Source: Pseudogymnoascus verrucosus (taxonomy: Eukaryota). From it: a stretch of 64,000 nt of DNA. Below, piece after piece: positions 23,186 through 25,533 of this stretch; positions within the stretch are counted from its first letter, which is position 1; each line of letters opens with the position of its first letter. The stretch lies in assembly GCA_001662655.1 (NCBI GenBank), contig KV460223.1, one strand, 5' to 3'. The translations under genes were made by a program, and so were the position numbers. The notes beneath the pieces are model-generated. The model was not told the DNA's origin, searched no databases, and saw nothing but the letters and a program-made list of their open reading frames with translations.

Positions 23186-24106
23186 ATGTACGTGTGCGAA
23201 AATACTTCTGGACGGAATACCTTGAGATACCCTATCCGAAGACATTAGTTACGATCGAGTGGGAGCACCCACGATTGATGGAGTCATCGATATGGAGATC
23301 CCACTCGTCAAAACTATTCACGACAGAGTCGGCCACGACACTTGAGGGAATCCGTCCAGCAGAGGCTTCTGATTAGCATGAACTAACGGGTTATCTTTAG
23401 GGTTAACCTTCGTACCCAGAAGCGCCTCGCGGCGGCCGTTGTGGGATGCGGACAGCGCAAGATCTGGCTCGACCCGAATGAGGTCTCCGAGATCTCCAAC
23501 GCCAACTCCCGTCAGACCATCCGCAAGCTCGTCGCTGATGGCCTCATCATCCGCAAGCCAGTCACCATGCACTCGAGGGCACGCGCTAGAGACCACACCG
23601 ATGCGAAGAGACTCGGTAGACACAAGGGTTTCGGTAAGCGTAAGGGTACCGCAGATGCTCGTATGCCAAGGTATGCAACACAACTCCGATAATGCGCTTT
23701 AGAGGGCGAGAGACTATGGAATGGGCACTGACAACCACCACAGCCAAGTCGTTTGGATGCGCAGACTCCGCGTTCTCCGCCGCCTCCTCGTCAAGTACCG
23801 TGCCAGCGGCAAGATTGACAAGCACCTTTACCACGAGCTTTACCACCTGAGCAAGGGTAACACCTTCAAGCACAAGCGCGCTCTGGTTGAGCACGTACGT
23901 TACACCTCAACACAATTTGCATCATCTGAGCTAACAATGCGCAGATCCACAAGGCCAAGGCTGAGGCCGCCCGTGAGAGGACTATCAAGGAGGAGATGGA
24001 CGGCCGTCGTGCCAAGACCAGGGCTGCTCGCGAGCGCAAGCAAGAGAGAGTTGTCGCCAAGCGTGCTGCCATGTTCGGTGATGAGGAGGAGACCGAGACC
24101 AAATAA
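23186..24106 (+). CDS. RPL19: 60S ribosomal protein L19 (eL19)
   Basis: AT|intron 23188-23400|G gives [14 protein letters not shown]...KIWLDPNE...[10 protein letters not shown]...[12 protein letters not shown]...[21 protein letters not shown]. Three introns; stop at 24104-24106. Confidence 0.97.
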
Positions 24107-24858
24107 GCATTGCAACTTTTTACGGGGTAGCTGGAGCGGGGCAATGGTCTTACAAATAAAAGGCTCGGTTGCTTTTCGTTATCAGGGCTTTCTGCATGTA
24201 CTGCATGGACAATGGTGTCATGAACTCTTTCAAAGCGTGAAAGCCTTCTTCTGTTCGTGGTGACAACAGGAGATACTGATCTCCCTCGTGTGGCCGACCC
24301 CCGTCCAATGCCCATGGATACTGTGTTTCTGTCTACTGACCGTGAAGGACCAAAGCAACTCTTTTCAGGTGAGCGCCACGTCAAGCTTTCGCCGTGACCA
24401 ACTTCTCTCGTTTGACAGCGAGTTTTCTTCGCATCTACAACATTCCAACCATTGCACCCATCAGCCACATTGTCAGCCATGATCAAACGCAACTTCCAAG
24501 AAGTTGTTCCTCAGTACCTATTTCTACTTTGTCTTCATTTTTCTTTACAATCTGTTCCACAGTCCACAACTGTGTTCCCCAAATCAGGCATTAGTGTGTA
24601 CAGCATTTCGAGCTCTCAATGCTCCTCTGCTGAAGGATAACTATCTTTCGTGCCAAGATCTACCACCAAACCCTTTCCTTACCAAACACCTGCTCCCTAT
24701 TTCTCTCTGGGAAACTGGTGCATGAAGAAGGGGTTACATTTTACCTACTATGCTGTCTATTATAGACGTGTAATAGTTTTGCGGGCTTTTGGGGGTATTC
24801 TACTTGTAGAGGTATGCATATATTTTCTTATAATTGTGATGTCATACATCATCGCCCA

Positions 24859-24951
24859 TATAATGATGACAAATGGTCAAGAGACCAGATATATAACCCA
24901 GCTCGTTGAGGCACAAGTTGCCCTATGAAATAAGAAACATGTTCTGAAACA
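24859..24951 (+). ncRNA. Box C/D snoRNA, snR69-like, copy 1 (intronic)
   Basis: Box C ATGATGA 24863-24869; guide AACCCAGCTCG 24895-24905, complementary to conserved LSU rRNA UGAGCUGGGUU; D' TTGA 24906-24909; box D CTGA 24944-24947. Confidence 0.8.
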
Positions 24952-25112
24952 ACAACAACGATTCCACGTTACTATAACTCAAGCTACTCTGTTCAGTTGC
25001 TAACGTTGATTGTAGTCATTCCACTTCACTGTGGCGACAACTACAAGTCTGAGAGACAGAAAGTCTTTTGAAGAGGGTATGTTTTATCAATTTCTTGTTC
25101 AAATTACTCCCC

Positions 25113-25209
25113 TATAATGATGACAAATGGTCAAGAGACCAGATATATAACCCAGCTCGTCGAAGCACAATATACGTGCATTGTGAGATAAGAAACATGT
25201 TCTGATATT
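25113..25209 (+). ncRNA. Box C/D snoRNA, snR69-like, copy 2 (intronic)
   Basis: Box C ATGATGA 25117-25123; same guide 25149-25159; D' TCGA 25160-25163; internal GCAC/GTGC stem; box D CTGA 25202-25205. Confidence 0.8.
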
Positions 25210-25533
25210 TATTTAACTTCATCTTTTGAATCAAACATATATTTTGGCTCACCATACTAACTTGGTATGAAGGTCTTCTCTCTACGACTTGGACATTGTT
25301 CTTGGGGCTATAGCTAGACAAGTGTATATAAATGAAGCATTATTACACTTATGATTGTTAAACCGCGTGAAATTCATATTCGTGTTCCATAAGCACACTT
25401 GCAACTAATAACCTAGGAAGCTAACTGTATCCCATGATCCACATACAACGTAAAGACTAGATTCCTATGTGCAACGAAGTAGGTATTCTACAACCACTTG
25501 ACGCCAAAACCGCCCATTTTATCTGCCGGGCCA

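Follow-up and report, generated by a model that had tools for sequence, protein, structure and literature searches.

The locus analysed here lies in a 64-kb stretch of the 30.2-Mb eukaryotic assembly of Pseudogymnoascus verrucosus (the window), where an A+T-rich gap (GC 0.38 at 24800-25199) separates RPL19 (plus strand, stop at 24106) from a convergent SHMT gene (Pfam E 1.8e-166). Intron signals and gene similarity suggest that the DNA is that of a filamentous ascomycete. The initial annotation had placed there a non-coding host gene with two intronic box C/D snoRNAs; both snoRNAs stood up to our analysis, which also revealed an exonic H/ACA-like RNA that had been missed, 70 nt upstream of the annotated 24812..25272 region. 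The best overall explanation, which we regard as highly probable, is that a spliced non-coding host located between RPL19 and SHMT yields three guide RNAs. No tRNA was found in the 64-kb window. The outline of the locus is given below.

23402..24106, + strand: last three coding exons of RPL19 (eL19), the upstream same-strand neighbour (Pfam Ribosomal_L19e, E 1.7e-27)
24812..25015, + strand: intron 1 (GTATGC...CTAAC...TAG), host of snR69 copy 1
25016..25076, + strand: exon 2, 61 nt long; neither its sequence nor its length is conserved (homologous locus L026: 82 nt)
25077..25272, + strand: intron 2 (GTATGT...CTAAC...AAG), host of snR69 copy 2
25273..25360, + strand: predicted exon 3, with an approximate 3′ end bounded by the convergent SHMT transcript

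The SHMT-side contigs of a close relative start at 25363. As a separate observation on the other neighbour, the RPL19 3′ UTR (24108-24263) was 82-85% identical in the homologous loci L026 and L075 of two other fungi, which is unusual for a UTR, and may carry a regulatory element.

The intronic RNAs were assigned first by Rfam, a check that the initial annotation had put forward. Both exceeded the gathering score of snosnR69 (RF00475; 52.8 and 54.8 against 50), and they were the only gathering-level Rfam matches in the 64-kb window.

24859..24949, + strand: snR69 copy 1, RF00475 at 52.8 bits (cut-off 50)
Boxes of copy 1, + strand: C 24863-24869, guide 24895-24905, D′ TTGA 24906-24909, C′-like 24925-24931, D 24944-24947
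25113..25207, + strand: snR69 copy 2, RF00475 at 54.8 bits (cut-off 50)
Boxes of copy 2, + strand: C 25117-25123, guide 25149-25159, D′ TCGA 25160-25163, C′-like 25183-25189, D 25202-25205

The ~90-nt imperfect direct repeat with ATGATGA and CTGA bounds that had been noted earlier resolved into a 62-nt part of 95% identity (24855-24916 and 25109-25170) and a 29-nt part of 86% identity (24919-24947 and 25177-25205). Both copies contain the C box ATGATGA, the D box CTGA and the guide AACCCAGCTCG (24895-24905 and 25149-25159), which adjoins D′. The D box precedes the branch A by 56 nt in copy 1 and by 55 nt in copy 2; this spacing was 51-56 nt in seven of the nine snR69 copies examined, and 65 and 112 nt in the other two. 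The layout of C, D′, C′ and D boxes and the guide AACCCAGCUC are common to the RF00475 family and the window copies, and CCCAGCUCGUCGA is shared with Afu-304 of A. fumigatus (RF01511; AM921929), although that match (E 0.27) fell below the cut-off. Afu-304 was cloned, migrated at 95 nt on a northern blot, is intronic and is the predicted guide of Cm2925 (PMC2377427).

The guide formed an 11-bp duplex both with an LSU fragment of another eukaryote (L118) and with the Rfam LSU consensus. The fifth base before D′ (G24901 and G25155) lies opposite the C of GAGC in LSU, in agreement with the target C that had been proposed from the +5 rule. We take this C to be the position labelled Cm2948 in yeast. 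Its equivalents are printed as Cm2906 for N. crassa (PMC2780460) and Cm2925 for A. fumigatus (PMC2377427). Pattern and Rfam searches of the assembly returned no intact rDNA of Pseudogymnoascus verrucosus, and no SSU either; the only LSU match was a degenerate ~170-nt fragment with a G at the snR69 target C. Because this fragment also differs from the Rfam consensus at adjacent positions, it neither supports nor refutes the target. It is found between two protein genes (L005:1367-1535, minus strand; contig C75 of G000) and spans the target position.

A second snR69 guide adjacent to the D box was considered and found unsupported, as the stretch varies among homologs. In only 3 of 51 distinct copies did the bases beside D form six or more pairs with the rRNA immediately upstream of the guide duplex, and the window copies form five; at most, the stretch adds some weak pairing, as has been described for yeast snR69 (PMC3116282). 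A small hairpin, TGGTC-AAGA-GACCA, is located between the C box and the guide (24874-24887 and 25128-25141); many fungal snR69 homologs retain it with substituted base pairs. The window thus almost certainly holds a pair of intronic snR69-family C/D snoRNAs. Both the family and the type of host are known, the copies are ordinary, and no new target is predicted for them.

To the host itself we applied coding and splicing analyses. The longest ATG ORF of the spliced host encodes 63 aa, and none longer was obtained when counting from 24240. This frame was lost in the homologs L026, L004 and L075, which have 30, 4 and 31 unrelated codons, respectively, and a 1-nt deletion at 24762 breaks it in the close relative. 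A protein-coding host was ruled out on these grounds, and the spliced exons, having no ORF conserved across the homologs and the relative, bear out the non-coding host proposed initially.

RNA-like evidence came from assembled contigs of 4 of the 24 listed runs (X1, X4, X19 and X20). X1 and X4 belong to two studies of the close relative, which is a few percent divergent. Because the contigs of both skip the introns of RPL19 (23671-23743 and 23895-23944) and of SHMT, they behave as RNA, although their RNA status is a guess and none of the listed runs is registered as RNA; no RPL19, SHMT or host splice joint was seen in X19 and X20. One X4 contig ended exactly at 24811, the last base before intron 1, and one X1 contig linked 24811 to 25109 through 86 intervening letters. 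In the window, exon 2 and the start of intron 2 together span 93 nt, and X4 shows the relative to have 7 nt fewer in this stretch (75 versus 68); 93 minus 7 gives the 86 letters, which therefore fit, by length alone, a transcript with intron 1 spliced and intron 2 retained. The contigs of X1 and X4 both stopped at 25301, the expected end of k=31 contigs whose paths merge at the acceptor 25272; the three later AGs predict ends at 25342, 25346 and 25351. These ends fit the intron 2 acceptor at 25272 and support it indirectly, and no intron 2 junction occurred among the contig pieces listed. In the sequence of the window, the splice signals lie where the initial annotation placed them (donors 24812 and 25077, CTAAC branches, acceptors 25015 and 25272, and the 61-nt exon). 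An RNase III hairpin across the junctions was also tried and rejected as inconsistent among homologs (1, 22, 74, 123, 78 and 1 of 200 mononucleotide shuffles).

The contigs of the relative left a loose end at 24586, which led to a second locus, L004, on another contig of the genome. About 157 nt of exon 1 were 78% identical there (E 1.8e-27), upstream of an intronic snR69, and the unit sits 162 nt behind the stop of a Brix-domain ribosome-biogenesis gene. The unit at L004:1501-1830 (minus strand; contig C12 of G000) consists of the H/ACA-like RNA and a single intronic snR69, and its H box is consensus, unlike that of the window. In a metagenome search, 104 loci matched a pattern of C box plus guide, 80 of them with full flanks, and the exon 1 element was present at two of the 104, L026 (E 4e-38) and L075 (E 3e-23). 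These loci of two other fungi have the same order as the window, RPL19 followed by the H/ACA-like RNA and two snR69 copies, with RPL19 as the upstream neighbour at both and SHMT downstream at L026 as well. The element, ~155 nt long and without an Rfam family at cut-off, is thus kept at four loci in three genomes, while the exon tail and the introns are not conserved.

24586..24741, + strand: predicted box H/ACA snoRNA in host exon 1, from homologs and a two-hairpin consensus fold, with ACA at 24736-24738
24587..24654, + strand: H/ACA hairpin 1, pocket strands GTGTGTA 24594-24600 and AAGG 24633-24636, invariant in all four homologs
24656..24661, + strand: H-box position, AGATCT in the window (not ANANNA), AGATCA in L004 and L026, AGAAAA in L075
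24670..24734, + strand: H/ACA hairpin 2, pocket strands CTTACCAA 24678-24685 and ATG 24722-24724, 14 nt from ACA

In the consensus fold, all four homologs form a hairpin, a hinge, a second hairpin and a tail, the last being ACA, or ATA in L075, and conservation drops right after this trinucleotide. The pocket strands are invariant and the upper stems variable. The fold z-score of hairpin 2 was -2.68 in the window and -5.10 in L004, and its pocket lies 14, 14 and 15 nt from ACA and 12 nt from the ATA of L075, where the rule is 14-16. The hairpin 1 pocket lies 23-25 nt from the H box in all four homologs; because this spacing fails the 14-16 rule, the RNA is classed as H/ACA-like and only as a predicted member of the class. 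An 8-nt one-sided bulge in the lower stem of hairpin 1 could take up the excess spacing.

These departures leave room for another reading, that the exon 1 element is a promoter or an RNA-stability element, or that the window copy is a decaying guide. The off-consensus H box of the window and the hairpin 1 spacing are in its favour, as are the lack of an Rfam family at cut-off and the weak covariation (5 of 42 pairs, a count reached by 22 of 500 shuffles of the 4 sequences). Yet the two hairpins, the fall of conservation behind ACA or ATA and an ANANNA H box in three of the four homologs argue against it, as does the contrast between invariant pocket strands and variable upper stems. The nearest Rfam H/ACA match, ceN49 of C. 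elegans (RF01639), shares the hairpin 2 pocket and ACA, a weak resemblance (E 3.1) that points the same way, and both pockets match uridines with a pseudouridine signal in Chaetomium. We therefore consider a regulatory element or a decayed guide improbable, and the exon 1 RNA very likely to be an H/ACA guide, as predicted from its homologs and fold.

Further homologs were sought with a covariance model, which returned only its four training sequences among 61 sources; two matches to an H/ACA 18-mer in the prokaryote collection had no profile match and were taken as chance. In seven supplements of PMC2780460, the H/ACA motifs were absent except for unrelated C/D matches. Neither the cluster nor the H/ACA guide was found in the open-access literature or, at cut-off, in Rfam, and the layout and the third RNA appear to be undescribed, with parts of known kinds. 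The RNA may equal "intergenic structure 3", which is listed without a target by Gao et al. 2021 (PMC8216456); the targets given there differ from those predicted below.

Hairpin 1 is predicted to target SSU rRNA at CCUU-[U]-G-UACACAC, with 4 + 7 = 11 Watson-Crick pairs to the SSU fragment L121, and hairpin 2 to target LSU rRNA at CAU-[U]-U-UUGGUAAG, with 3 + 8 = 11 Watson-Crick pairs to the LSU fragment L122. Shuffled rRNA-like sequences of 5.4 kb matched this Watson-Crick pairing in 2 of 1000 cases for hairpin 1 and 5 of 1000 for hairpin 2; with G-U pairs allowed, 81 of 300 and 21 of 300 shuffles, respectively, paired as well. The search covered 2345 nt of non-fungal or unplaced rRNA fragments, two of them chosen for containing the expected motif, so that better targets may lie elsewhere in rRNA. 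To our knowledge, budding yeast lacks both of the targeted pseudouridines. By numbering, we take the U paired by hairpin 1 to be Psi1692 of 18S. In human, 18S Psi1692 is guided by SNORA70 (PMC9610020), for which no Rfam match to the H/ACA-like RNA was found at E up to 10.

Published Chaetomium data bear on both sites. For C. thermophilum, 26S Psi1105 was positive by four of four methods (PMC12723226, Suppl. Table 2). Nanopore signals along the five-U run of LSU were 1.7, 69, 19, 49 and 2.3% in this species (PMC12723226), and the predicted hairpin 2 target, the second U, coincides with the top signal of 69%. The site of yeast snR5 and N. crassa ACA6 is the fourth U of the run, and hairpin 2 points two bases before it; that ACA6 (Nc Psi1105) corresponds to the fourth U is inferred from numbering offsets (PMC2780460). 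At the SSU U that precedes G, the signal was 35% for C. thermophilum and 32% for C. globosum, where the neighbouring U gave 33%; by the Psi call alone the values were 12.8% and 9.5%, below the 20% bar of that study (PMC12723226). The register of this U in the Chaetomium data was inferred from the pattern of U and non-U. On balance, both predicted targets are probably correct.

The three RNAs may derive either from a host gene of their own or from the tail of RPL19. In the latter case, RPL19 would have a lengthened 3′ UTR or a read-through isoform that includes the cluster, as would the Brix-domain gene at L004; the ribosome-biogenesis mRNA itself would then be the source of the snoRNAs, the introns would be 3′ UTR introns and a separate host gene would not exist. 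One X4 contig does span the spliced RPL19 exons up to 24811, and one X1 contig reaches from the last RPL19 exon across intron 1 in spliced form, but a contig over two genes is no proof of a single transcript. RPL19 is upstream on the same strand in all three genomes with the double cluster, the Brix stop codon at L004 is only 162 nt from the H/ACA-like RNA, and the N. crassa H/ACA RNAs ACA10 and ACA16 are listed in 3′ UTRs (PMC2780460, Table 2), although 16 of the 20 N. crassa H/ACA genes are intergenic according to the same source. Against read-through, conservation past the RPL19 stop ends at ~24240-24263 and resumes ~320 nt further on at the H/ACA-like RNA, 480-634 nt from the stop; this gap would suit an ordinary 3′ end with a promoter behind it, and a pyrimidine-rich stretch precedes the H/ACA-like RNA. 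The depth of the downstream X1 contig was 420 compared to 3246 for the RPL19 coding contig, although such depths cannot rank genes. We judge a host with its own promoter somewhat the better supported arrangement, and an extended RPL19 transcript unlikely.

In its fullest form the read-through reading would make the cluster the processed tail of transcripts that continue beyond the RPL19 poly(A) site, with a 3′ UTR that gives two methylation guides by splicing and, from its exon, a hitherto unknown double pseudouridine guide. The design would have been rebuilt behind the Brix-domain gene, with the four snR69 copies kept alike by conversion and the H/ACA-like RNA being the missing fungal guide for two pseudouridines. 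We consider this whole chain quite unlikely; if true, it would tie ribosomal-protein mRNA output to rRNA modification.

The genome contains four snR69 copies: the two in the window, one at L004 and one in an intron of the YchF/OLA1 GTPase gene. They differ from each other at 5-12 columns, whereas the two of L026 differ at 2, and the guide is identical in all four. The YchF/OLA1 intron (L002) is a widespread snR69 site, with flanking exons matched by 59 of the 104 metagenome pattern loci and 44 pattern matches falling between both YchF exons, although the loci include repeats of the same organisms. In other fungi, this intron can hold two intron-like units joined AG|GT or AG|GC with no exon between (L047:1-400, L046, L037, L018 and L040); both snR69 copies are intact in L047, one is decayed in L046 and L037, and the first unit has shrunk to ~50 nt in L018 and L040. 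This is an independent doubling of snR69, of the "complex intron" type of Luo et al. 2013 (PMC3596301).

The initial annotation ascribed the pair in the window to tandem duplication of an intron-plus-snoRNA unit, and the comparison of copies does not uphold this in its simple form. When the intron flanks and exons of the two window units were compared with each other, 75, 239, 154 and 86 of 300 shuffles scored as high, two near-identical copies reside on other contigs, and the copies group by genome. In the tree of nine snR69 copies (89-column alignment), the pair of L026 grouped with support of 95/92 and the pair of L075 with 90/90, by genome and not by position. A clade of first copies was rejected (p-AU 0.010); a clade of the second copies of the window and L026 was rejected weakly (p-AU 0.042), and a clade of their first copies was not rejected (p-AU 0.068).

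A single tandem duplication, with both positions inherited ever since, would explain the tandem copies behind the H/ACA-like RNA in three genomes and the like geometry of the two window introns, and other fungi offer a parallel in the tandemly doubled snR69 introns within their YchF intron. It is opposed by the absence of detectable homology beyond the snoRNA body, the rejected first-copy clade and the grouping of the L026 and L075 pairs by genome on those 89 columns, and the L075 second copy, for which a canonical donor is missing within 110 nt; all these data would nevertheless be compatible with an old duplication followed by conversion. Because the flanks show no homology and the copies cluster by genome, a single tandem duplication is possible only if it was old and followed by conversion, and repeated duplication fits equally well; we give the single event a little less than an even chance. 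The second copy of L075 (L075:1783-1880), in which the first branch-like motif lies 112 nt downstream, may now be exonic.

Fungal snoRNA families usually have one copy per species (PMC5824354), whereas four near-identical snR69 copies are found here, three of them outside the YchF/OLA1 intron. The "Paralogs of AM921940 in Leotiomycetes" of that paper are Afu-298 and not the snR69-like Afu-304, and do not pre-empt this finding. Non-coding snoRNA hosts have been described as clusters I-VI of N. crassa (Liu et al. 2009, PMC2780460) and as clusters I-III of Euascomycetes (Luo et al. 2013, PMC3596301). Those hosts are spliced, with short ORFs and poorly conserved exons, and each intron carries a single snoRNA, placed 41-60 nt from the donor; the present host would follow a similar plan. 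Cluster III also has one exon-encoded snoRNA (PMC3596301). The six N. crassa clusters (PMC2780460) have C/D snoRNAs only, whereas here an H/ACA-like RNA comes first and both introns carry the same family. The mixed clusters of PMC12508059 have intronic and exonic snoRNAs in one precursor, as predicted here, and SNHG25 among them mixes C/D and H/ACA RNAs; the exonic snoRNA is last in 10 of those 12 clusters, in contrast to the first position here, a minority layout (2 of 12).

These results suggest the following model. A short, spliced, non-coding RNA polymerase II transcript would carry all three guide RNAs. Each snR69 would be freed by splicing, debranching and exonucleolytic trimming, as in established snoRNA biogenesis, and would direct 2′-O-methylation of LSU at the C within GAGCUGGG, close to the peptidyl-transferase centre. 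Exon 1 itself would be a double-guide H/ACA snoRNA, with its 3′ end trimmed after splicing or decay of the host; conservation and pairing suggest that it directs pseudouridylation at two sites, the U in SSU CCUU-U-GUACAC and the second U in the LSU CAUUUUUGG run. Historically, the YchF/OLA1 intron, the widespread site, may have been the source from which snR69 was copied to an intron downstream of the H/ACA gene, giving an H/ACA-snR69 unit now present at two loci, with copies that would stay alike through conversion or repeated re-duplication. Because the guide is identical in all four copies, the benefit is likely dosage and co-expression rather than a new target.

This locus adds three things to what is known: a predicted H/ACA guide in an exon, a conserved mixed layout that begins with the exonic RNA, and four homogenised snR69 copies, which together form a compact example of snoRNA relocation and of homogenisation within one genome. 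An exonic-first mixed cluster also raises the question of how the 3′ end of the exon 1 snoRNA is freed from the spliced host. Many rRNA pseudouridines of filamentous fungi have no assigned guide (PMC12723226), and the locus provides a concrete, deletable candidate guide for two such pseudouridines.
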